A DNA stretch of 64,000 bases from a virus (Duplodnaviria > Heunggongvirae > Uroviricota > Caudoviricetes), in IMG/VR virus record IMGVR_UViG_2681813318_000003; one strand, given 5' to 3'. Below, piece after piece: positions 3,574 through 31,106 of the stretch; position 1 is the stretch's first letter, and every line of letters begins with the position of its first letter. The notes beneath the pieces are model-generated. The model was not told the origin of the DNA and searched no databases. It was given only the letters and a program-made list of their open reading frames with translations. The position numbers were made by a program, and so were the translations under genes.

Positions 3574-4494
3574 TTATTCCTGTGCAGCAGTGACTTCTAC
3601 GGTCGCTGTCGCTTTGTGGCTACCATCTTGGGTAGTAACCTCGATTGTGGCAGTACCAGCCGCAACGCCAGTTACAACACCGGTTTCGCTATCAACCGTT
3701 GCAAACTCGGTATTTTTGGATTCCCAAGTAACGGTTTTATTTGTTGCTCCTGCCGGCTCGACATTTGCGGTCAGCTGAACAGTTTTGTTTGCCTCAACGG
3801 TTGTGCTATTTGGGTCGATTTCGACGCCGGTAACAGCCACAACAGGCGCAGTTACTTCCACCGTTGCAGTTGCCTTTTTGCTGCCATCTTGGGAAACGAT
3901 CTCAATCGTCGCAGTGCCAACTTCTACACCAGTAACGTTCCCGCTCTGGTCTACCGTTGCCTTATCTTCATTTTTTGAAGACCAGGTAACAGCCTTATTC
4001 GTCGCATTTGACGGCTGAACATTCGCTTTCAGACTGACTGATTTCCCTTTCTCAACAGAGGTTGAGTCTGGCGTTACCGTTACGGATTGAACGGCTACCG
4101 GATTTACGGTGACTTCCACTGACGCGGAAAGCTGGGTTTCCTGATCAGTTGCAGTAATTTTTACTTTGCCTGGTGCTACACCAGTTACTAATCCAGTGCC
4201 GTTAACGGCTGCAATTTGATCATTAGCTGACTTCCAAGTGAATGAACTGGCACTCTTACCCATACTAATACCTGCACTAAGTTGAACAGTTTTCCCAACC
4301 AAAACTGACGGTGAAGCCGGGGTTATGTTTACGGATTGGGAGAGGGGAACCGCCTGCAAACAAGCAGATAGCTGACTTTGTTGCCGCTCGGTTAAAGGTT
4401 CATCGGAGATAGAATTGGTAAATCCGGCGCGGCACATATGCCCCGTAAAATCCGAAAATGCCTCTTCCGTAATCTTCATCTTTTGTTCTGGCAT
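3574..4494 (-). CDS. Ig-like domain (three Big_2-type repeats) head decoration protein
   Basis: Three tandem about 80-aa repeats of the type VTVTP..SV..G..V.L.A.V.P..A.NK.VTW.S...ATV; ATG 4494 preceded by AGGAG; directly downstream of the capsid gene. Confidence 0.55.
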   Translation of the reverse strand: MPEQKMKITEEAFSDFTGHMCRAGFTNSISDEPLTERQQSQLSACLQAVPLSQSVNITPASPSVLVGKTVQLSAGISMGKSASSFTWKSANDQIAAVNGTGLVTGVAPGKVKITATDQETQLSASVEVTVNPVAVQSVTVTPDSTSVEKGKSVSLKANVQPSNATNKAVTWSSKNEDKATVDQSGNVTGVEVGTATIEIVSQDGSKKATATVEVTAPVVAVTGVEIDPNSTTVEANKTVQLTANVEPAGATNKTVTWESKNTEFATVDSETGVVTGVAAGTATIEVTTQDGSHKATATVEVTAAQE

Positions 4495-6377: not shown

Positions 6378-7952
6378 TCACTCGTTCTCTTGAGTAGATG
6401 AGTCCCCATTCCCTCGGGGTTGATCTTGCCCGCTTTCTTGGGCCACACCACGATCATAAGTAAGTACTGACTTATTTTCAAGGGTATTTAGATCATTTTT
6501 TGGCGGAAAATTCAAGAGATCTTTATCAAATTCCTTTTTCATCGCCTCAGTAATGTTCGGGAAAATCTTCTCAATAAGCATTTCCATCTGGTGACGACGT
6601 ACAGAGTCCGGTGCCTGAAGTAATGACAGTTTCTCGGCAACAGAAAATTCATCTGTAAGGCCACGAATATCGAAACTTTCTGGATACGCAATTAAAGAGT
6701 GGTCTTCGTCCAGATCTACCCCCATCCATTTCGCAACCAGTAGCATGATTTGGCGTTCAGCCCTTTCCAGACGCTCTGCTTTTGTGACAAGCAAGCTATT
6801 TACACGCTGGAAGTCATACATTTTTGCGGCACCAGATGAGTTATCGATTCCCTGTGCGTTGTCCTGCTTCGTTCGCTCACCAGCTACACCAACTGAATGG
6901 TAGATTTCGTTAATCACCGTCTTAATCGTAGTGATGATCATCTGAGCTTGTTTCGGGTCTGGTGACAGATAAAACGGCTGGTTTCCACCTTCAGAATCGT
7001 AGGTGAAGACTCGCTTTGTGCCCATTTCAAGCACTTTAGTGTGGTTTTCATCACCAGGTAAAAGCGACTGTACCGGTATAGCCAACTGGCTAAATGTCTG
7101 ATCCTGAATAATGGCATCAAGGTTTGACAGATAGTTTGCAACCGCACGATCAAGATAAGCGATATCATCGATCAACGATGGGCTGAAATACGGTGATTCA
7201 CTTTCTCCAATACAATCAACAGGAAACACAGGAACTACGCCGAGATTATGCTCACCGCTATCCTCTAAAATAACTTTTGCCTGACGGCGACCTGCTCCAC
7301 CAGCGCCCTTCTTCACTTCCTCACGGAACAGATACCACTCGTTTTGTGTCCACAGACGATAACGTTGGTATTCCTGACCTGTAGAAGTAAAAGGATCTGC
7401 GTCATCACGAGCGACTTCCACAATTAACGCCCACAACATATTCCCGTCGTCGTCCCATGCCACATCCAGCATTTGCTGAGGTGAAATCCAGTAGGCGTAG
7501 GCGCGAGCATCTTTCTTTTTCTCGTCAGCTACTGACTCAACATCACCACTCATCGTGCTATCGACAACAACCCATATGCGACCGTAAATAGACGACTGCA
7601 AATCAATAGCGGCCATAAATAAGTCAATAGAGGCATTCTGGCGAGTCGCACGTTTCCAGAAATTGCGGATCTGCTCTGGTGCCTCTTCGATATTTCTATG
7701 AATGTCTTCTTTAAAGAGATATTTGTTGATGAGGTTTACCACCTCACGAGTGTGGTTGAAGCGATAAGCACGTTCAACTCGCTCCTTAAACTCCTGATCT
7801 CCCTCTTTAAAGTAACGAAAGATATTGTCTGTAAACCAACCACGCCCGCCAGCGTAAGTGCTGGCGAGGAAGTCCCAATGTTCTTTTTTCTTTTCGTATT
7901 CCGGGTGGCGTCGCGCCACCAGATCCTTAATTTGTTTGTCGTTCAATTCCAT
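6378..7952 (-). CDS. Portal protein
   Basis: 524-aa ORF immediately downstream of terminase large subunit; size and position typical of portal. Confidence 0.65.
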   Translation of the reverse strand: MELNDKQIKDLVARRHPEYEKKKEHWDFLASTYAGGRGWFTDNIFRYFKEGDQEFKERVERAYRFNHTREVVNLINKYLFKEDIHRNIEEAPEQIRNFWKRATRQNASIDLFMAAIDLQSSIYGRIWVVVDSTMSGDVESVADEKKKDARAYAYWISPQQMLDVAWDDDGNMLWALIVEVARDDADPFTSTGQEYQRYRLWTQNEWYLFREEVKKGAGGAGRRQAKVILEDSGEHNLGVVPVFPVDCIGESESPYFSPSLIDDIAYLDRAVANYLSNLDAIIQDQTFSQLAIPVQSLLPGDENHTKVLEMGTKRVFTYDSEGGNQPFYLSPDPKQAQMIITTIKTVINEIYHSVGVAGERTKQDNAQGIDNSSGAAKMYDFQRVNSLLVTKAERLERAERQIMLLVAKWMGVDLDEDHSLIAYPESFDIRGLTDEFSVAEKLSLLQAPDSVRRHQMEMLIEKIFPNITEAMKKEFDKDLLNFPPKNDLNTLENKSVLTYDRGVAQESGQDQPRGNGDSSTQENE

Positions 7953-24155: not shown

Positions 24156-26189
24156 TTACTTAACCTGGTGGCCAGGTTTAGCACCAGCATCCGGGCTTAA
24201 CAGGAAGATATCTTTCCCGCCGGGGCCAGCAGCCATCACCATGCCTTCAGAGATACCGAAGCGCATTTTACGCGGAGCCAGGTTAGCCACCATAATTGTG
24301 TGACGACCAATCAGTGCCTGTGGGTCTGGATAAGCAGAACGGATGCCTGAGAAGACATTACGCTTTTCACCACCGAGATCCAGCGTCAGGCGCAGCAGCT
24401 TGTCAGAACCTTCAACAAACTCTGCGTTTTCAATCAGCGCCACGCGCAGGTCAACTTTAGCGAAGTCGTCAAAGGTGATGGTTTCCTGAATCGGGTCGTC
24501 TGCCAGTGGGCCAGTTACCGGTGCGGCTGTGGCTTTCACTTCTTCTTTGGATGCTTCCACCAGTGCTTCCACCTGTTTCATATCGATACGGTTATACAAT
24601 GCCTTGAACGGATTCACTTTATGGCCCAGCAGCGGTTGCTGGATACCATCCCAGGTCAGTTCTGTATTCAGGAATGCTTCTGCACGTTCAGTCAGTTTCG
24701 GCAGTACCGGTTTCAAGTACGTCATCAGCACGCGGAACAGGTTAATGCCCATAGAGCAAATCGCCTGCAGATCGGCATCGCGTCCTTCCTGCTTCGCCAC
24801 CACCCACGGAGCCTGTTCATCAACATAGCGGTTAGCCAGGTCAGCCAGTGCCATGATTTCACGGATAGCTTTACCAAATTCGCGGCTTTCCCATGCTTCG
24901 CCAATCACTTCAGCGGCATCAGTAAAGGTTTTGTACAGTTGCGGGTCAGCCAGTTCGCTTGCCAGCACGCCGTCAAAACGCTTGTTGATAAAGCCTGCAT
25001 TACGGGAGGCCAGGTTAACCACTTTGTTCACGATATCGGCATTCACGCGCTGAACGAAATCCTCCAGGTTGAGATCGATATCATCAATGCGCGAAGAGAG
25101 TTTCGCAGTGTAGTAGTAACGCAGGCTGTCGGCGTCAAAATGATTCAGCCAGGTGCTGGCTTTAATAAAGGTGCCGCGAGACTTGGACATCTTCGCGCCG
25201 TTCACCGTCACATAGCCGTGAACAAACAGGTTGGTCGGCTTGCGGAAGTTGCTGCCTTCCAGCATGGCAGGCCAGAACAGGCTGTGGAAGTAAACAATAT
25301 CTTTACCGATGAAGTGGTACAGCTCGGCGGTGGAGTCTTTCTTCCAGTATTCATCGAAGCTGGTGGTATCGCCGCGCTTGTCGCACAGATTCTTGAAGGA
25401 ACCCATGTAGCCAATCGGCGCGTCCAGCCAGACGTAGAAATATTTGCCCGGCGCGTTCGGAATTTCAAAACCGAAGTAAGGCGCATCGCGGGAGATATCC
25501 CACTGTTGCAGGCCGGATTCAAACCATTCCTGCATTTTGTTCGCCACCTGCTCCTGCAACGCGCCGCTGCGGGTCCATGCCTGCAACATTTCGCTGAAAG
25601 AAGGCAGATCAAAGAAGAAGTGTTCGGAATCACGCATTACCGGGGTAGCGCCAGAAACCACCGATTTCGGCTCGATCAATTCAGTCGGGCTATATGTTGC
25701 GCCGCAGACTTCACAGTTATCGCCGTATTGATCTGGCGCTTTACATTTCGGGCAGGTGCCTTTTACAAAACGATCCGGCAGGAACATGCCTTTTTCCGGG
25801 TCGTACAACTGAGAGATAGTGCGGTTTTTAATAAAACCGTTCTCTTTCAGGCGAGTATAGATAAGCTCAGACAACTGACGGTTCTCTTCGCTGTGCGTCG
25901 AGTGATAGTTGTCATAGCTGATGTTAAAGCCTGCGAAATCAGTCTGATGCTCATGACTCATTTCGCCAATCATCTGCTCCGGTGTGATACCAAGCTGCTG
26001 TGCTTTCAGCATGATCGGCGTACCGTGGGCATCGTCGGCACAGATGAAATTAACCTCGTGGCCGCGCATTCGCTGGTAACGAACCCAGACATCAGCCTGG
26101 ATGTGCTCCAGCATATGGCCGAGGTGGATTGAGCCGTTAGCGTACGGCAGCGCGCACGTCACCAGAATTTTCTTCGCGACTTGGGTCAT
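24156..26189 (-). CDS. metG: Methionine--tRNA ligase (host-type)
   Basis: 677-aa protein starting [31 protein letters not shown], class I HIGH motif, zinc knuckles CPKC/CEVC, KMSKS motif. Near-identical (a handful of substitutions) to Escherichia coli MetG as recalled from memory, not from a database search. The longer ORF to 26318 is an upstream read-through. Confidence 0.95.
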
Positions 26190-26346
26190 AGTAGGCATTA
26201 CTTCTTTGTAGTGAAAAGGGGCTTGATAGTAACAAAATGGCCTTATGTCTGCCATGTGATAACAGCATTTCTCATAAATGATTAAATGTCGTAGCTGGAG
26301 TACACTACAAGGCGACAATTGCGCAAATTAAAATAAAGGAGACGGG

Positions 26347-27447
26347 ATGAGCGAGTCCAAATCGCCGGATGCCCTGAGAGCAATGGTAGCCGGTACGCTG
26401 GCTAATTTTCAGCACCCAACCCTGAAACACAACCTGACTACGCTTAAAGCGTTACACCATGTTGCGTTGATGGATGACACACTGCATGTCGAACTAATCA
26501 TGCCTTTCGTGTGGAATAAGCCTTTTGAAGACCTGAAAGAGCAATGTAGTGGTGATCTGCTCCGTATCACTGGCGCAAAGGCTATTGACTGGAAGCTGTC
26601 GTACAACATTGCCACGCTTAAGCGCGTCAAAAACCAACCAGGCATTAATGGCGTTAAGAACATTATCGCCGTCAGCTCAGGCAAGGGCGGCGTGGGTAAA
26701 TCCTCCACGGCGGTAAACCTGGCACTGGCGTTGGCTGCTGAAGGTGCGAAAGTTGGTATTTTGGATGCCGATATCTATGGTCCATCAATTCCAACCATGC
26801 TGGGCGCGGAAAACCAACGTCCAACCTCACCTGACGGTACTCACATGGCACCTATCATGTCTCATGGCCTGGCAACCAACTCTATTGGTTATCTGGTCAC
26901 CGACGACAATGCAATGGTGTGGCGTGGACCGATGGCCAGCAAGGCGCTGATGCAGATGTTGCAGGAAACTCTATGGCCTGATCTGGACTATCTCGTTCTC
27001 GATATGCCGCCGGGCACTGGTGATATTCAGTTGACGCTGGCGCAGAACATTCCTGTAACTGGTGCGGTTGTGGTAACTACGCCGCAAGACATCGCGCTGA
27101 TCGATGCGAAGAAAGGCATTGTGATGTTCGAAAAAGTCGAAGTGCCGGTACTGGGTATCGTCGAAAACATGAGTGTGCATATTTGCAGTAACTGCGGTCA
27201 TCACGAGCCAATTTTTGGCACCGGTGGCGCACAGAAACTGGCCGAGAAATACAACACGCAGTTGTTAGGCCAAATGCCACTTCATATCTCTCTTCGTGAA
27301 GATCTGGATAACGGAACACCAACCGTTATTAGTCGTCCAGATAGCGAATTTACGGCTATTTATCGTGACCTCGCAGATCGCGTTGCTGCCCAAATGTATT
27401 GGCAAGGTGAAGTAATACCTGGCGAAATCGCATTCCGCGCAGTGTGA
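26347..27447 (+). CDS. apbC: Fe-S cluster carrier ATPase Mrp/ApbC (host-type)
   Basis: 366 aa, P-loop SGKGGVGKS, CxxC motif ICSNCGHHEP; divergent from metG with a 157-bp intergenic region as in the enterobacterial chromosome. Confidence 0.95.
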   Translation: MSESKSPDALRAMVAGTLANFQHPTLKHNLTTLKALHHVALMDDTLHVELIMPFVWNKPFEDLKEQCSGDLLRITGAKAIDWKLSYNIATLKRVKNQPGINGVKNIIAVSSGKGGVGKSSTAVNLALALAAEGAKVGILDADIYGPSIPTMLGAENQRPTSPDGTHMAPIMSHGLATNSIGYLVTDDNAMVWRGPMASKALMQMLQETLWPDLDYLVLDMPPGTGDIQLTLAQNIPVTGAVVVTTPQDIALIDAKKGIVMFEKVEVPVLGIVENMSVHICSNCGHHEPIFGTGGAQKLAEKYNTQLLGQMPLHISLREDLDNGTPTVISRPDSEFTAIYRDLADRVAAQMYWQGEVIPGEIAFRAV

Positions 27448-27452
27448 TAAAA

Positions 27453-27478
27453 AGGCGGTGCATTGCACCGCCTAATCA
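27453..27478. terminator. Bidirectional terminator shared by mrp and the UmuD'-like gene
   Basis: GGCGGTGCATTGCACCGCC hairpin flanked by AAAAA on the plus side (T-run on the minus strand). Confidence 0.55.
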
Positions 27479-27484
27479 GTTCTC

Positions 27485-27874
27485 CTACATCACGGGACAA
27501 TCATCAAACTCGCCACTTCTTGCGTCGTTGATAATGTGAGTGATCACACCAAACACGGCATTGCTGCCCGTGCATCCATCGTCATCCTTTGGCAATGCTT
27601 CCTTCTTACCGGTTCTTAAATCCTCCAGATGCTGACGTGGGTACTTCCGGTATCTTTTTACGCGATATTCCCCACCCAGAGCGCATACAAGCAGAGAACC
27701 ATCAACCGGGGTAAGTGAGGAATCGACCACCAGCAATGCACCCTGTAATATTCCCTCACGATGATGACTATCAGCTGCCCTCATGAAGTAGGTCGCTGAA
27801 GGATGTCTAATTATCTGCTGATCAAGAGAAATACGGCTCTCAGCATAATCCGCCGCAGGAGAAGGGAAGCCCAT
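27485..27874 (-). CDS. UmuD'-like peptidase S24 protein encoded in pre-processed form (HumD-like)
   Basis: Starts MGFPSPAADY, corresponding to UmuD residues just after the Cys24-Gly25 autocleavage site; HPSATYF motif; Ser (ADSH) and Lys (RVKRYRK) of the catalytic dyad present; in-frame TAA five codons upstream excludes a longer N-terminus. Confidence 0.8.
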   Translation of the reverse strand: MGFPSPAADYAESRISLDQQIIRHPSATYFMRAADSHHREGILQGALLVVDSSLTPVDGSLLVCALGGEYRVKRYRKYPRQHLEDLRTGKKEALPKDDDGCTGSNAVFGVITHIINDARSGEFDDCPVM

Positions 27875-27890
27875 AATACTCGCCTCTTAA

Positions 27891-27910
27891 TACTGTATAT
27901 ACATACAGTA
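27891..27910. promoter_or_regulatory. LexA (SOS) box
   Basis: TACTGTATATACATACAGTA, a CTGT-N8-ACAG match to the SOS-box consensus, 17 nt upstream of the UmuD'-like ATG and overlapping a TTCAAA-17-TATACT promoter on the minus strand. Confidence 0.75.
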
Positions 27911-27964
27911 TATGTTGAAGCTATATATTTTTGAACTCTATCTCTTAAAAAAGATGTTAATAAG

Positions 27965-28207
27965 ATGCTAACTATTGAAAGGCATAAATATATACAATTC
28001 CATCAAACGTTATTTTTAACAAATTTTTTCTCTCCGTTGACTTTTGCGAAAGCCTTGTCTGGCCTAAATTGCGCGGAAGATACTTTTTCCTTCCTGAGTT
28101 ATCCACAGAGTTATGCACTTGCATGCATAACCTATACACACTATCTTAATTCGCAAGACACTGATGTTGCGGTATTGAAGGTTCATTGGGTTAAAAATAG
28201 ACATTAA
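27965..28207 (+). CDS. Hypothetical small hydrophobic protein (low confidence)
   Basis: 80-aa ORF divergent from the SOS-controlled gene, followed immediately by a terminator; weak SD. Confidence 0.25.
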   Translation: MLTIERHKYIQFHQTLFLTNFFSPLTFAKALSGLNCAEDTFSFLSYPQSYALACITYTHYLNSQDTDVAVLKVHWVKNRH

Positions 28208-28236
28208 AAAGCCCAGTTGACTAGGCTGGGCTTTTT
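28206..28236. terminator. Bidirectional rho-independent terminator
   Basis: AAAAAGCCCAGTTGACTAGGCTGGGCTTTTT. Confidence 0.6.
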
Positions 28237-28271
28237 AAAAGGAAACAGAGTTTGCGCCTCTGTTCCTGAGC

Positions 28272-28572
28272 CATAAGTATCTGGCGACTGAGCTAAGATT
28301 AACCGAATGTACTGGATTCATCAAGAAACGTTGAGCCGTCATGCTAGGTAATAATGACCATTTACCAAACATCGTTGTTCTCAAAGAAGATTTAAGTCCA
28401 GGTTTTTGGTGACTCTAAAACCTTACCTTAACTCGAAATCGTGCCGTAAGTATCTGGCGACTACAGATATTGCAACTGCAAAGGCAAGCTCAAAGGTATT
28501 TGCAGCTAGGTGCGATAAAACTAAGTGAGGCCTATAGTGCTTAACTTACTTTTCAAAATCGTGCCGCCTATG
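28272..28572. repeat. Two tandem imperfect repeat units in a non-coding region
   Basis: Both units begin with TAAGTATCTGGCGACT (28276 and 28449) and end with AAATCGTGCCG (28437 and 28555); no ORF. Confidence 0.45.
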
Positions 28573-28630
28573 TTCGCAATCATCGAAGCGATCATTGAGT
28601 ACGTCAACCAGCGCCCATAATGCTAGTTGT

Positions 28631-28660
28631 TACCGGCCCCATCCAAATGGGGCCATTTTA
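28631..28660 (+). terminator. Rho-independent terminator
   Basis: CCGGCCCCATCCAAATGGGGCC followed by ATTTTATT. Confidence 0.55.
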
Positions 28661-28669
28661 TTGTATTGA

Positions 28670-29341
28670 CTACATACTTTCTGATCTAATTGAGTTGTTC
28701 ACTGCTCTGGCAATTTTCTCCCGCAATTGCTGCGTTCCGTGGTACTGAACCGCAATATCCCGCAACTCGTTCACCAGTTCTCTAATCTGGTGATCTTTAA
28801 GCTCATTATTTGGGTGATGGGTAACAACTCTGGTTAATTCACCCTTGTCTTTTGCCCTTACGTATGCAGCTCTTGTGCATTCGACCCATGTATTACCGCC
28901 TACATTAACTTCGTAGATTAGGCTAGACTTATCTGTCAATTCGGAACAAATACGGGCCGTGGTCTGGCAACTAGAGCATTCGCAGTTATCGCGGAAACCG
29001 TGGTCTACTGGCTTCGGTTTCACATCATCAACTTTTTCTACCCTATTGGAATTTAAATACTTCGAAGCCTTGCTATGCCAATCGCTGGTTTTAGGATCTT
29101 GTCCATCCATCAAACGCCAGGCTTCAGCGATTAACTCATAACTAGTGACTGTAGCTTCCTGCGCATCACCAATAAGTCGTGTAATCTCTCTTTCAAGCCG
29201 ACCGCCTAGCTCTGTTTTAGTGCAATGTTCTGACCAATCGCCAGCCTCAAGCAGCGCGAGAATGCTTAAAATATCGTCCAATAGATCAGTGGTATTATCG
29301 ACTTCCTTCTGAAGCTCACCGGCTACTGATTTATGCATCAT
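28670..29341 (-). CDS. Hypothetical protein
   Basis: 223-aa ORF, first of a run of small minus-strand accessory genes. Confidence 0.4.
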   Translation of the reverse strand: MMHKSVAGELQKEVDNTTDLLDDILSILALLEAGDWSEHCTKTELGGRLEREITRLIGDAQEATVTSYELIAEAWRLMDGQDPKTSDWHSKASKYLNSNRVEKVDDVKPKPVDHGFRDNCECSSCQTTARICSELTDKSSLIYEVNVGGNTWVECTRAAYVRAKDKGELTRVVTHHPNNELKDHQIRELVNELRDIAVQYHGTQQLREKIARAVNNSIRSESM

Positions 29342-29559
29342 TCGTCATCCTCATCCGAGTCATCCTCATCACAGAATGAAAGTAGTGGGTTAGTCATTCG
29401 CCCTACCTGAGTAGCGTAGCCACGCCGACAGAGATTGCGCAGCACACTGTATATTTCGAACATCTCGGTTCGTTCACCGCCAACATCAAGCTCAGATGCT
29501 ATAGCGTGACATTCAGTCGCGAGAGCCGATATTTTCTGAAATAACTCTGCTTTATTCAC
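29338..29559 (-). CDS. Hypothetical small acidic protein
   Basis: 73 aa with poly-acidic C-terminus DEDDSDEDDE; translationally coupled to neighbours. Confidence 0.35.
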   Translation of the reverse strand: MNKAELFQKISALATECHAIASELDVGGERTEMFEIYSVLRNLCRRGYATQVGRMTNPLLSFCDEDDSDEDDE

Positions 29560-30256
29560 TCTGCGACTCCTGCGGAGGTTCTGGTAGCGGCATCCAATGG
29601 GTTACGTTGCTAATCAGTCCATATTCATTAGTTTGAGGATGGCCGCCGCGATCGTCTCCGTATTTAAAACTTTCCATAAAACCATAATGCTTACCCCCAT
29701 TAACGCTCACAAAGCCGTAATAAGCTGGTATAACGCCGATCTCACACGTAATCAGCAAAGGAAAACCAGTTCTCCAATTTAGCTCGCCGATTACAGGCAT
29801 TCGCTCACTACAGCTTATCCAGCTATCCTTAATGCCACTATCTTGACTCTGAAGCATGGCGGCACGACAGGCGTTCCAGCCTCTCACCTCTGCAATAGCG
29901 GCAACAGCATCGACCGCGTACATTTTAAGAGGGTTAGGCATTGGTTTTTCTTCAGGTACTACTGGAATGGGTGGGGCGGCGTAGACCTCAATAATTCCAT
30001 TATCAATAGGCCATTCTCCATCCTTGAGGTAGTCACTTGTGCCGTCAACTTGCTGTTCTGCAATGTGGAATGCACCTATTGGTTTTGCCTCAAGCGAGGC
30101 CAGTGCAATTCGTGCCAGTTCTAGATCTCGTTCAACCATCTCAAGAACAACTTTGCAGTCCGCACCTTCTTTGCTAACACGTCCTTTCAAGTTTTCCAGA
30201 TAACTAACGCTTTCGCGTGCATGGGAGATTAACTGTTCTTTGGTAAAGGTGGTCAT
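29552..30256 (-). CDS. DUF551-like phage protein (tentative)
   Basis: C-terminal GDDRGGHPQTNEYGLISNVTHWMPLPEPP resembles the conserved C-terminal motif of DUF551 proteins common in enterobacterial prophages. Confidence 0.35.
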   Translation of the reverse strand: MTTFTKEQLISHARESVSYLENLKGRVSKEGADCKVVLEMVERDLELARIALASLEAKPIGAFHIAEQQVDGTSDYLKDGEWPIDNGIIEVYAAPPIPVVPEEKPMPNPLKMYAVDAVAAIAEVRGWNACRAAMLQSQDSGIKDSWISCSERMPVIGELNWRTGFPLLITCEIGVIPAYYGFVSVNGGKHYGFMESFKYGDDRGGHPQTNEYGLISNVTHWMPLPEPPQESQSE

Positions 30257-30444
30257 TAGGCAGCTCTCTCAACAACAAGCAATTCGTCGTAGTCATAATC
30301 AGTTTCGGAGCCATCCGTACCGAACAGAGTCACTTTGTCACCGTCCATCCAGAAAGATTTAACCGCACATTGTTGACCTTTAGATGTTATGACCACATCA
30401 CCAGGTATTACGTCCTCAGCGCGAACTTCTATAGTTCTCATCAT
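30256..30444 (-). CDS. Hypothetical small protein
   Basis: ORF 30256..30570 trimmed to the internal ATG (MMRTIEV) that abuts the upstream stop. Confidence 0.3.
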
Positions 30445-30764
30445 GCTGATCCCTCTTTCTCTCCCCGGATAATTCTGTTGCACACATCCACGCACTCGTC
30501 GCAGATAAAAACGGCGTCCCCAGCAATTAACTTTTTGACGGCGTGCTGGGATTTGTTGCAGAAGCTGCAATAAAGCGTTCGCCTAACGGATACGGATGGT
30601 GCGCCAGATGTCAGCCGCGCCATATCGTTCTTGCGGCGCAACATCACACGGCTGAACTCAACCAGTTTCTCTGGGGATATCTCCTCCTCCGTAGCTAGCG
30701 TCTCTAGTCGTTCGAGTATGTGGAAGGCTTTTTCCTGGGTAATTGCAGAATGCGATGTGGTCAT
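30441..30764 (-). CDS. Small protein with ClpX-type C4 zinc-binding domain
   Basis: [36 protein letters not shown] closely parallels the ClpX N-terminal zinc-binding domain ([36 protein letters not shown]); no AAA+ module follows. Confidence 0.55.
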
Positions 30765-31106
30765 CTTCTTTCACCTTAATTTTCGACACGATCATGATTT
30801 AGCCAAAATCCACCATCCCGAAATGAGTGCATAATCTGACCAACATGAGTGAACAATCCCGTTCTCCTGTTGCTGATTCTTGTCCATTGCAAGACTCGAG
30901 GGTCGTTTCTACGAACTAATAGAATCTTTGCTTTACGGTTTTTCATCGTTTTGCTCTCCTGCGTTTCTTTGCTGCACGCCGAGCCGCCGCGATACCAGTA
31001 CGACGCTTTGATGCAGGAATACCGGTTCCATCAGAAAAGACATGCGACTTTATGAGTGATGTTGACGCCCAAAGGCGAATTGGGTGTGGAAGCAAGCCGA
31101 AGAACA

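Follow-up and report, generated by a model that had tools for sequence, protein, structure and literature searches.

A candidate type I toxin-antitoxin-like cassette, comprising a 27-codon peptide gene and a divergent antisense RNA, in an SSU5-like phage-plasmid of Escherichia coli

We examined an unannotated interval, positions 27911-28660 with its flanks, of a 64,000-nt stretch of Caudoviricetes DNA (IMG/VR record IMGVR_UViG_2681813318_000003), hereafter the window; coordinates given for relatives are those of their own loci (L-numbers). By sequence comparison, the host element is an ~110-kb SSU5-like E. coli phage-plasmid, as segment 27400-28800 has 96-97% identity to plasmids of ~105-120 kb and to phages Cyrano (pLF82) and CMS-2020a, Cyrano being classed as an SSU5-like phage-plasmid (PMC9928086). 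On the left, metG and apbC in phage-plasmid copies are followed by humD, which encodes a UmuD'-like protein of 129 amino acids (27485-27874, minus strand), while on the right a leftward operon of ea22/eaa-like genes ends at 28670. The ~800 bp from humD to the ea22-like operon carry zero features in every annotated record. Here we describe direct repeats, a predicted minus-strand gene for a small RNA (sRNA), and a plus-strand gene for a 27-amino-acid hydrophobic peptide in this interval, and argue that the cassette is probably an unannotated type I toxin-antitoxin-like pair that forms a new sequence family.

Relatives were retrieved with the conserved leader pattern GTATCTGGC-N12-20-ACTGCAAAGG, which gave 44 true homologous loci from viral contigs and 6 from bacterial genomes. 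These six, with the two-copy repeat layout described below, were found among 39 genome matches; the other 33, from unrelated phyla, are chance matches in about the expected number. Five of the six bacterial-genome loci have informative titles, which name Citrobacter, Kluyvera, and an Enterobacter chromosome. Pattern matches, loci from annotated collections, and the window itself make up a final set of 55 loci, or 44 distinct sequences, with 49-100% identity to the window over 660 nt.

The candidate toxin gene occupies 28537-28620 on the plus strand. It has a GTG start codon, a TAA stop at 28618-28620, and a Shine-Dalgarno (SD) sequence, GAGG, at 28527-28530, and its product is MLNLLFKIVPPMFAIIEAIIEYVNQRP; the start codon is ATG in other lineages, as in the allele MVNLLFKIVPPMFAIIKAIIEYVNQRP. 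This 27-codon open reading frame (ORF) lies just 5' of the right-hand terminator and is conserved in an alignment of representatives. Across 16 distinct alleles, the ratio of nonsynonymous to synonymous polymorphism (pN/pS) is 0.285, and by codon position there are 498/207/1137 pairwise differences and 17/4/23 variable columns of 24; the ratio and the codon-position pattern therefore place the frame under clear purifying selection. The peptide reads as one hydrophobic helix, with a conserved central Pro-Pro and a conserved polar C-terminus, and falls among the hydrophobic products of <60 amino acids that characterize coding genes of the 5'-antisense type I class. In some lineages it is replaced, or preceded in tandem, by a paralogous peptide that shares its pattern, L-L-x-K-h-x-x-P ... 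Y-h-x-x-R (for example, MALLLLILKLAPPVTAIITALLGYFKDR). None of the 93 plasmid records and neither of the two phage records in which it is encoded carries an annotation of the gene, and an exhaustive search of 1.84 billion representative proteins, with a 31-amino-acid extended ORF as the query, returned two real relatives, both labeled 'hypothetical protein'. The locus is likewise not described in the literature that we searched for the peptide motif or for type I systems on phage-plasmids, although the ORF could be among the candidates tabulated by Fozo et al. 2010 or in the dql paper, which lay outside the scope of that search.

A terminator scan confirms the strong terminator that an initial annotation of the window had placed at the end of the region, on the plus strand at 28635-28654 (GGCCCCAT-CCAA-ATGGGGCC followed by ATTTTATT), where it would end the peptide mRNA; related loci have a terminator stem of other sequence at the equivalent position. 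As there is no minus-strand T tail at 28635-28654, leftward transcription of the ea22-like operon could continue, antisense to the peptide gene, up to the terminator hairpin at 28236-28206.

Upstream of the peptide gene are the direct repeats. The longer one, repeat A, is GCC[A/G]TAAGTATCTGGCGACT, with copies A1 at 28270-28289 and A2 at 28443-28462, 173 nt apart. The initial annotation had noted a shared 16-bp start; the match is in fact 20 nt long and far beyond chance, with an equal number of matches to the 16-mer in none of the shuffles of the 64-kb window. Two A copies, 152-178 nt apart, are found in every homologous locus with enough upstream sequence (~55). Repeat B, TC[G/A]AAATCGTGCCG, corresponds to the shared end that had been noted as 11 bp. 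It extends over 11-14 nt at 28433-28446 (B1) and 28553-28566 (B2) and on its own is not beyond chance, as 9 of 100 shuffles gave at least three matches at up to two mismatches, though it is kept in relatives. While the repeats thus hold, the two tandem units into which they had been grouped are not equivalent: A1 is read from the other strand, as the 5' end of a predicted sRNA, and A2 as the likely target of that RNA. The second unit ends within coding sequence, where B2 covers codons 6-10 of the 27-codon ORF.

The predicted sRNA, the candidate antitoxin, is 84 nt long and is read from the minus strand at 28206-28289. Its 5' seed is the reverse complement of A1 (28289-28270), and this is followed by an internal stem-loop (28266-28241) and a terminator (28236-28206), a bidirectional hairpin followed by U5. 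A sigma-70-type promoter is predicted at 28296-28324 on the same strand, with a -35 element TTGATG (28324-28319), a 17-nt spacer, and a -10 element TAATCT (28301-28296). Most other loci have TTGAAG-17-TAAG(C/A)T, for a consensus of TTGA(A/T)G-17-TAA(G/T)NT, and in 17 of 17 representatives (49-100% identity) this promoter is the top minus-strand score and stands at an identical offset from A1. The predicted start, A 28289, is the last base of A1, and it is there that the similarity between A1 and A2 stops in every lineage. The sRNA fold has a minimum free energy (MFE) of -32.6 kcal/mol (z -4.46), and across 20 sequences both stems show compensatory changes, such as GC/AU in a 10:10 ratio at one terminator pair. 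A covariance model of these 20 sequences has one strong match in the window, the sRNA (97 bits, E 7e-21). The Rfam scan that the initial annotation had named as a check matched no antitoxin or other RNA family (Rfam 15, E<=1, 26000-31000, both strands), and a tRNA/tmRNA search found none.

Three terminators had been counted in this region. Of these, 28206-28236 is bidirectional, 28241-28266 is a hairpin without a T tail and belongs within the predicted sRNA, and 28635-28654 is the true plus-strand terminator. The minus-strand T tail of 28206-28236 comprises 5-6 T in all lineages, and the plus-strand tail is degenerate in most; in the window itself there are five T on each strand, so that the plus tail is as good as the minus.

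To what would this sRNA bind? For its 5' 30 nt, A2 is the best non-self target on either strand of the 64-kb window (-38.6 kcal/mol). Complementarity between sRNA and A2 spans 20 nt in the window, with one G·U pair, and 24 nt in most relatives, compared with the at least 15-18 nt expected of such pairs. Three A variants occur (TAAGTATCTGGCGACT, AATGTATCTGGCGACT, and AATGTATCTGGCAGC), and any one locus always has the same variant in both copies. Where A1 and A2 do differ within the repeat, the differences are almost exclusively C in A1 and T in A2, or A in A1 and G in A2; such differences are tolerated as G·U pairs in one arrangement only, antisense A1 RNA against the sense strand of A2, and would yield mismatches in the reverse one. 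Repeat A is thus most likely, as judged from these comparisons, the footprint of an antisense RNA pair, A1 specifying the 5' end of the sRNA and A2 its target in the mRNA leader. The concerted, G·U-compatible evolution of the A copies lends indirect backing to our inference that the sRNA represses peptide synthesis by base pairing.

The mRNA that carries A2 is predicted at 28400-28660 on the plus strand, ~260 nt in all, with a 5' end that may lie at about 28397-28402. Conserved blocks and the consensus fold indicate a leader of ~135 nt that begins with a 5' hairpin, GGTG/TACC (28408-28427), followed by the ORF and the terminator. For 23 distinct leaders, RNAalifold predicts a three-way junction made up of a helix between B1 (28438-28445) and an element that we call anti-B, the A2 hairpin, and an invariant hairpin, CTGCAAA/TTTGCAG. 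Anti-B (GGTGCGAT, 28509-28516) lies near the ribosome site and is complementary to both B1 (TCGAAATCGTGCCG), with which it closes the junction, and B2. In the A2 hairpin (28449-28454 with 28466-28471), the loop CUGGCGACUAC is exposed, and the other arm compensates the TAAG/AATG variant by UA/AU changes. Pairing holds in 92% of cells for the B1:anti-B helix, in which three pairs have changed on both sides, and in 77% for the anti-B:B2 helix, which involves codons 7-10 and shows a single G-C/A-U compensation, seen in five sequences. Anti-B:B2 encloses the SD sequence and the start codon, whereas B1:anti-B leaves both outside; the MFE fold of the full-length mRNA, computed for a single sequence, uses anti-B:B2. 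In most lineages the sRNA duplex reaches into the 3' part of B1. Modeling suggests that the two B copies are mutually exclusive partners of anti-B, and they would be alike because both must fit it. A mok- or tisA-like leader ORF from the GTG of the GGTGA block was considered and discarded, as it stops after 8-12 codons in many lineages, and no leader ORF is conserved among the cassette lineages.

These features can be assembled into a type I toxin-antitoxin-like mechanism. The plus strand would produce the ~260-nt mRNA, in which the 27-codon ORF follows a long structured leader and encodes a hydrophobic peptide of one helix, and the minus strand would produce an sRNA of ~84 nt whose unpaired 5' 20 nt (24 in most relatives) are complementary to A2. 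By analogy with IstR-1/tisB, OrzO/zorO, and AgrB/dinQ, the sRNA would bind the A2 hairpin, about 75-95 nt upstream of the peptide start codon, and prevent translation. It might do so by blocking a standby or entry site, by favoring a leader fold that closes the ribosome site, or by RNase III cleavage, and a translation block would, again by analogy, probably be followed by such cleavage. The peptide may accordingly be modeled on its counterparts as a membrane-active toxin that serves plasmid or prophage maintenance, or a stress or phage response.

Several points weigh against this interpretation. The sequences themselves show the repeats, the constraint on the 27-codon ORF, the conserved promoter, stems, and terminator of the sRNA, and the A1/A2 complementarity with its concerted change; that transcripts are made, that the peptide is toxic and is repressed, which way the leader switches, and what part the upstream promoter described below plays are all inferred, and every RNA end is drawn from sequence, that of the sRNA start from promoter position. 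For the peptide mRNA, no convincing and conserved sigma-70 promoter was found, the only candidates being weak AT-rich -10-like hexamers 53-58 nt upstream of A2, and a search by eye for sigma-32, sigma-E, and sigma-54 motifs gave nothing convincing. The peptides match no toxin family, with nothing significant in Pfam, NCBIfam, PHROG, or PADLOC, and a central Pro-Pro is unusual for a pore-forming helix. In the leader, covariation is limited, as many paired columns are invariant and the sequences are related, and one outlier locus (L066) supplies much of the double changes in B1:anti-B. A thermodynamic switch in which the sRNA closes the ribosome site was tried and rejected, as predicted SD accessibility is unchanged in most lineages when A2 is blocked in silico; equilibrium folding thus lends the proposed leader switch no support. 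The argument from the direction of the G·U pairs draws on about 5-6 variable positions and is supportive, not conclusive. Finally, concerted evolution of direct repeats could also come from gene conversion or a shared DNA-binding protein.

We therefore weighed other explanations. The architecture may be real and the peptide something other than a toxin, such as a regulatory or protective membrane protein, acting in transporter modulation or superinfection exclusion and tuned by the sRNA. The missing toxin-family match would suit such a role, and the conserved Pro-Pro and polar C-terminus could be an interaction motif. However, the features taken together make up the typical type I pattern: the leader is long and structured, a dedicated divergent antisense RNA is complementary to it over 20-24 nt, paralogous peptides occur in tandem, and the carriers are plasmids and prophages, in one case with the cassette by an origin. 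We consider a nontoxic peptide unlikely.

Quite improbable, in our judgment, is that the direct repeats are DNA sites, whether recombination sites flanking tiny cassettes, iterons, or operators, with their concerted change imposed by protein specificity or gene conversion. The identity of the variant in both A copies is compatible with this, the arrangement of half-site, full site, and half-site resembles the products of site-specific insertion, and one relative adjoins a RepB origin. Yet DNA sites do not predict that A1/A2 differences run only in the G·U-compatible direction, that a promoter fires at the repeat edge and is followed by a covarying hairpin and terminator, or that the A2 variant is compensated within an intramolecular hairpin. 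Moreover, the repeat A motif occurs nowhere else in the window, and no recombinase or initiator gene is a constant companion of the cassette, whose neighbor genes vary among lineages. The initial annotation had allowed that the repeat units might be recombination sites or small RNA genes; the promoter, the stems, and the G·U-compatible differences fit an antisense pair instead. It is scarcely credible that the repeats are a decaying, functionless relic of a tandem duplication of the 5' region of the peptide gene, for although the end of the first unit (GGTGAC...AAATCGTGCCG) is much like the ORF start (ATGGTT...AAAATCGTGCCG), making an ancient duplication plausible as their origin, repeats, promoter, and stems are kept between lineages whose identity in the rest of the region is only 49-65%, and neutral relics would have diverged.

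The initial annotation itself had raised the possibility of an SOS-controlled toxin in the form of a hydrophobic ORF of 80 amino acids opposite the humD promoter, with the downstream tandem units as its antisense or small RNA genes. The frame is indeed open in the window (27965-28207, plus strand), with a LexA box 55 nt upstream, but it is spurious as a gene. Relatives at 88-90% identity break it by in-frame stops or frameshifts, substitutions are even over codon positions (for example, 8/6/7 versus P7), it has no family match, and it is superimposed on a copied E. coli nrdA promoter, DnaA boxes included. The terminator ascribed to it, 28206-28236, is consistently strong across lineages on the minus strand only and so is not that of the ORF, and the repeats have no complementarity to it. 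We thus regard the 80-codon toxin as highly improbable. What had been observed was largely right, and its interpretation was right in kind and wrong in detail: the general idea of a small toxin with an antisense RNA is the best supported, while the identity of the toxin and the roles of the repeats were mistaken, and the 27-codon ORF had gone unremarked.

The type I-like pair appears to move with its upstream promoter as a block. Collinearity between phage PhiR41_1 and the window runs to 27920 and resumes at 28692, with other DNA in place of 27921-28691. Because the DNA in the PhiR41_1 slot is unrelated, 27921-28691, which is nearly the interval first singled out, behaves by sequence comparison as a single exchangeable, self-contained cassette. 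In PhiR41_1 (L002 4524-5375) the slot holds 852 bp with a gene for a 174-amino-acid hypothetical protein, with ~95% identity on both flanks; the place between humD and the ea22-like operon is thus an exchangeable 'moron' site, and the block lost comprises the nrdA-like promoter, the sRNA, and the peptide gene.

The first part of this block, 28008-28154 on the plus strand, is a copy of the E. coli nrdA promoter region that reads rightward into the cassette and has 82-84% identity to the yfaL-nrdA intergenic region and to P1/P7. Its DnaA boxes, TTATCCACA (perfect, 28099-28107) and TTATGCACT (28111-28119), are placed as in E. coli nrdA, and the core promoter is predicted at 28119-28124 (-35, TTGCAT) and 28142-28147 (-10, TATCTT). 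In GenBank M95666 the P1 copy is annotated as an 'nrdA-like promoter' with a 'dnaA box', in the same direction as the plus strand of the window. The consensus box marks the window copy, by its sequence, as a putative DnaA-controlled promoter. It keeps only an NrdR-like 'box 0' and is without boxes 1 and 2, so the window itself does not qualify for the NrdR regulon: in nrdAB, boxes 1 and 2 are the pair that binds NrdR (PMC12176259, for box naming and binding data). An NrdR operator consists of two partially palindromic 16-bp boxes with a 15-16-bp linker, and NrdR is described as specific to ribonucleotide reductase genes (PMC13584703).

Other lineages have TTGTAC-16-TAGAAT at this position and then two 16-bp NrdR-type palindromes (such as CCACTACATGTAGTGG) whose starts are 31-32 nt apart, often with the TTATCCACA box next. 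Paired NrdR-type boxes are present in 13 of 34 distinct upstream regions versus no pairs in 509 kb of flanking background. They are seen in L007, L011, L013, L029, L031, L044, L048, L056, and L082, ~60-115 nt upstream of the shared terminator and with no reductase gene downstream; farther upstream, these loci have a conserved non-coding block of ~190 nt that resembles the far-upstream E. coli nrdA region. In all lineages a promoter with control elements of the ribonucleotide reductase type points rightward into the cassette, toward the 3' end of the sRNA, and the peptide ORF is the only plus-strand coding sequence downstream of it. Given the poor plus-direction T tail in most lineages, read-through of the shared terminator from this promoter is plausible there. 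We offer only tentatively, as a doubtful possibility, that the nrd-type promoter is the trigger and the cassette a toxin switch wired to DNA-precursor and replication status. Were repression by NrdR and/or DnaA lifted, through depletion of deoxynucleoside triphosphates, replication stress, or perhaps lytic phage infection, the rightward promoter would fire; read-through would then simultaneously collide with sRNA transcription, make RNA to which the sRNA is complementary along its whole length, and continue into the peptide gene, turning the toxin on. Literature searches for NrdR with type I toxins found no link described.

In P1 and P7, the nrdA-like promoter is followed after ~300 nt by an unannotated hydrophobic ORF of 45 amino acids (MNAFFQFLSAFLDAPIISQILAIILIIVLILLLRSVKNGIMHWLT in P7), at 3995-4132 on the plus strand in P7 (L005) and about 1490-1628 on the reverse strand in P1 (L004), where the sole annotations in the records are upf ORFs of the opposite strand. 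The 45-codon ORF has no relation to the 27-amino-acid peptide and may be a second small-membrane-peptide module of the same promoter type. Its position behind an nrdA-like promoter suggests a recurrent phage-plasmid design.

The SOS context is more limited than had been proposed. A LexA box, CTGT-N8-ACAG (CTGTATATACATACAG, 27894-27909), does stand ahead of the UmuD'-like gene and forms part of the humD promoter at the left border of the cassette, outside the toxin/sRNA pair. The homologous site in P1 is annotated as the LexA site of humD, and a minus-strand promoter-like site (27935-27907) overlaps the box. This humD operator is the only LexA box from about 1.5 kb to the left to 0.7 kb to the right of A1, lies 384 nt left of A1, about 380 nt from the predicted sRNA start, and about 500 nt from the peptide leader, and is outside the exchangeable segment; many related cassettes are without a LexA box within 1.5 kb. 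With no evidence of LexA at the toxin or sRNA promoters, SOS control is set aside and the pair is not assigned to the SOS regulon. A diverged HumD-like gene of 109 codons (same N-terminus, MGFPSPA.DYAE) is found left of the cassette in L013 (6100-6429, minus strand), with a LexA-type box near 6451. Humd-like genes recur beside the cassette in two diverged lineages, and, as the L013 lineage is only ~61% identical to the window, this neighborhood extends beyond the lineage of E. coli. The neighborhood of humD and the cassette may therefore not be accidental, though nothing in the sequences places LexA at the promoters of the pair.

How does the cassette compare with known systems? In silico it has the organization by which T1TAdb delimits the 5'-antisense class (TisB/IstR-1, ShoB/OhsC, and Zor/Orz, plus DinQ/AgrB), which includes an antisense gene that is 5' of the mRNA, on the opposite strand, non-overlapping, and within 300 nt (PMC8594479; further description of the class in PMC4147584): the sRNA gene is divergent from the predicted mRNA, does not overlap it, and lies ~110 nt from its 5' end. 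Read directly, the dinQ-agrAB and istR-tisB loci of MG1655 show the same footprint on the DNA, a direct repeat of which the antisense gene and the toxin leader each contain a copy.

A close parallel in layout may be drawn with tisB/istR-1, which shares a single-helix peptide of 27-29 amino acids, a divergent, non-overlapping sRNA gene on the 5' side, and ~20 nt of complementarity at the sRNA 5' end to a site that lies ~100 nt upstream of the ribosome binding site, itself structured. At that distance in tisB is a standby site for which the sRNA and ribosomes compete (PMC4147584). The conserved Lys-to-Tyr spacing of the cassette peptide also matches TisB. In contrast, the cassette has no LexA box between its two genes, no nucleotide similarity, no Rfam or Pfam TisB_toxin match, and no conserved tisA-like leader ORF, and it resides on phage-plasmids and prophages and not at a fixed chromosomal site. 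Homology to TisB was rejected, as a suggestive local score was accompanied by an hhalign probability of only 20% in profile comparison; 19 peptide variants had 0 Pfam matches at E<=10, whereas TisB itself scored 37 bits, and so fall outside the TisB family (PF13939).

With dinQ/agrB, the cassette has in common a 27-amino-acid peptide, direct repeats shared by antisense RNA gene(s) and toxin leader, alternative leader pairings that open or close the ribosome site, and an antisense site beside a competing element. The dinQ leader contains four elements that pair in mutually exclusive helices, and its SD hairpin closes when AgrB binds (PMC5066626). There are, however, two antisense genes, agrA and agrB, in place of a single sRNA copy, and the cassette has no LexA operator. 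We rejected homology to dinQ/dql, as blastn of the dinQ locus against the full set of cassettes gives at best a 22-nt match (E 0.45) and peptide similarity is z<1; the striking similarity to the dinQ 5' untranslated region and the DinQ signature residues that define dql are absent, in a comparison made with dinQ itself. The zorO/orzO and shoB/ohsC pairs have the same class of organization, with 18-19 nt of complementarity within a long leader, but are unrelated in sequence, and the cassette adds an nrd-type promoter reading across the sRNA gene. Like hok/sok, it is plasmid-borne and combines an antisense RNA with a small membrane peptide whose mRNA has a long folded leader, and the maintenance role is likely the same; there, however, the antisense RNA is encoded in cis, overlapping the mRNA, and acts via the mok frame, whereas the cassette has a non-overlapping sRNA gene, a short mRNA, no conserved leader ORF, and no Hok family match. 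As for E. coli nrdAB, the upstream copy in the window has both DnaA boxes and the -35/-10 elements, and related cassettes have paired NrdR-type boxes, but a peptide ORF takes the place of the reductase gene downstream, and the window copy is without boxes 1 and 2. By these comparisons, the cassette belongs to no named toxin or RNA family and has the same layout as tisB/istR-1, zorO/orzO, and dinQ/agrB.

Carriers are widespread. Most of the queried segment 27400-28800 is present in 111 of 5,426 complete E. coli genomes (~2%). The cassette is carried by SSU5-like and P1-like phage-plasmids and by prophages of Escherichia, Citrobacter, Kluyvera, Enterobacter, and Klebsiella, the P1-like and other plasmids (Citrobacter, Enterobacter, and Klebsiella) having been added by plasmid searches. 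Among the carriers is pLF82/Cyrano, the phage-plasmid of Crohn's-associated E. coli LF82. On a Citrobacter freundii plasmid (L009 3196-3460), the cassette adjoins a RepB initiator gene, that is, a replication origin, with five iterons of ~20 bp (TTATGAAAGTGACCGTA-like), a DnaA box, and a GATC-rich stretch beside it. Among the other genes of the window, 24156-26318 (minus strand) and 26347-27447 (plus strand) encode a methionyl-tRNA synthetase belonging to the phage-plasmid itself and an iron-sulfur carrier ATPase of the ApbC/Mrp type; this ATPase is labeled 'MinD' in the Cyrano record and is listed among genes expressed in the lysogen. To the right, a 107-codon ORF (30441-30764, minus strand) with the C-terminal CSFCNK...FICDECV resembles the N-terminal zinc-binding domain of ClpX. 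Its homologue is labeled 'ClpX' in the PhiR41_1 record, and it could be a decoy or modulator of host ClpX.

If the type I-like reading is correct, the few trans-acting type I systems of enterobacteria would be joined by a new toxin and sRNA family, and widespread phage-plasmids would have a candidate maintenance or abortive-infection function. The nrd-type promoters would offer a testable link between nucleotide-pool sensing and toxin activation, and a toxin cassette with an NrdR operator pair would be unexpected, as NrdR has been described as specific to reductase genes. More generally, direct repeats in seemingly 'empty' intergenic DNA can be the footprint of an antisense pair.

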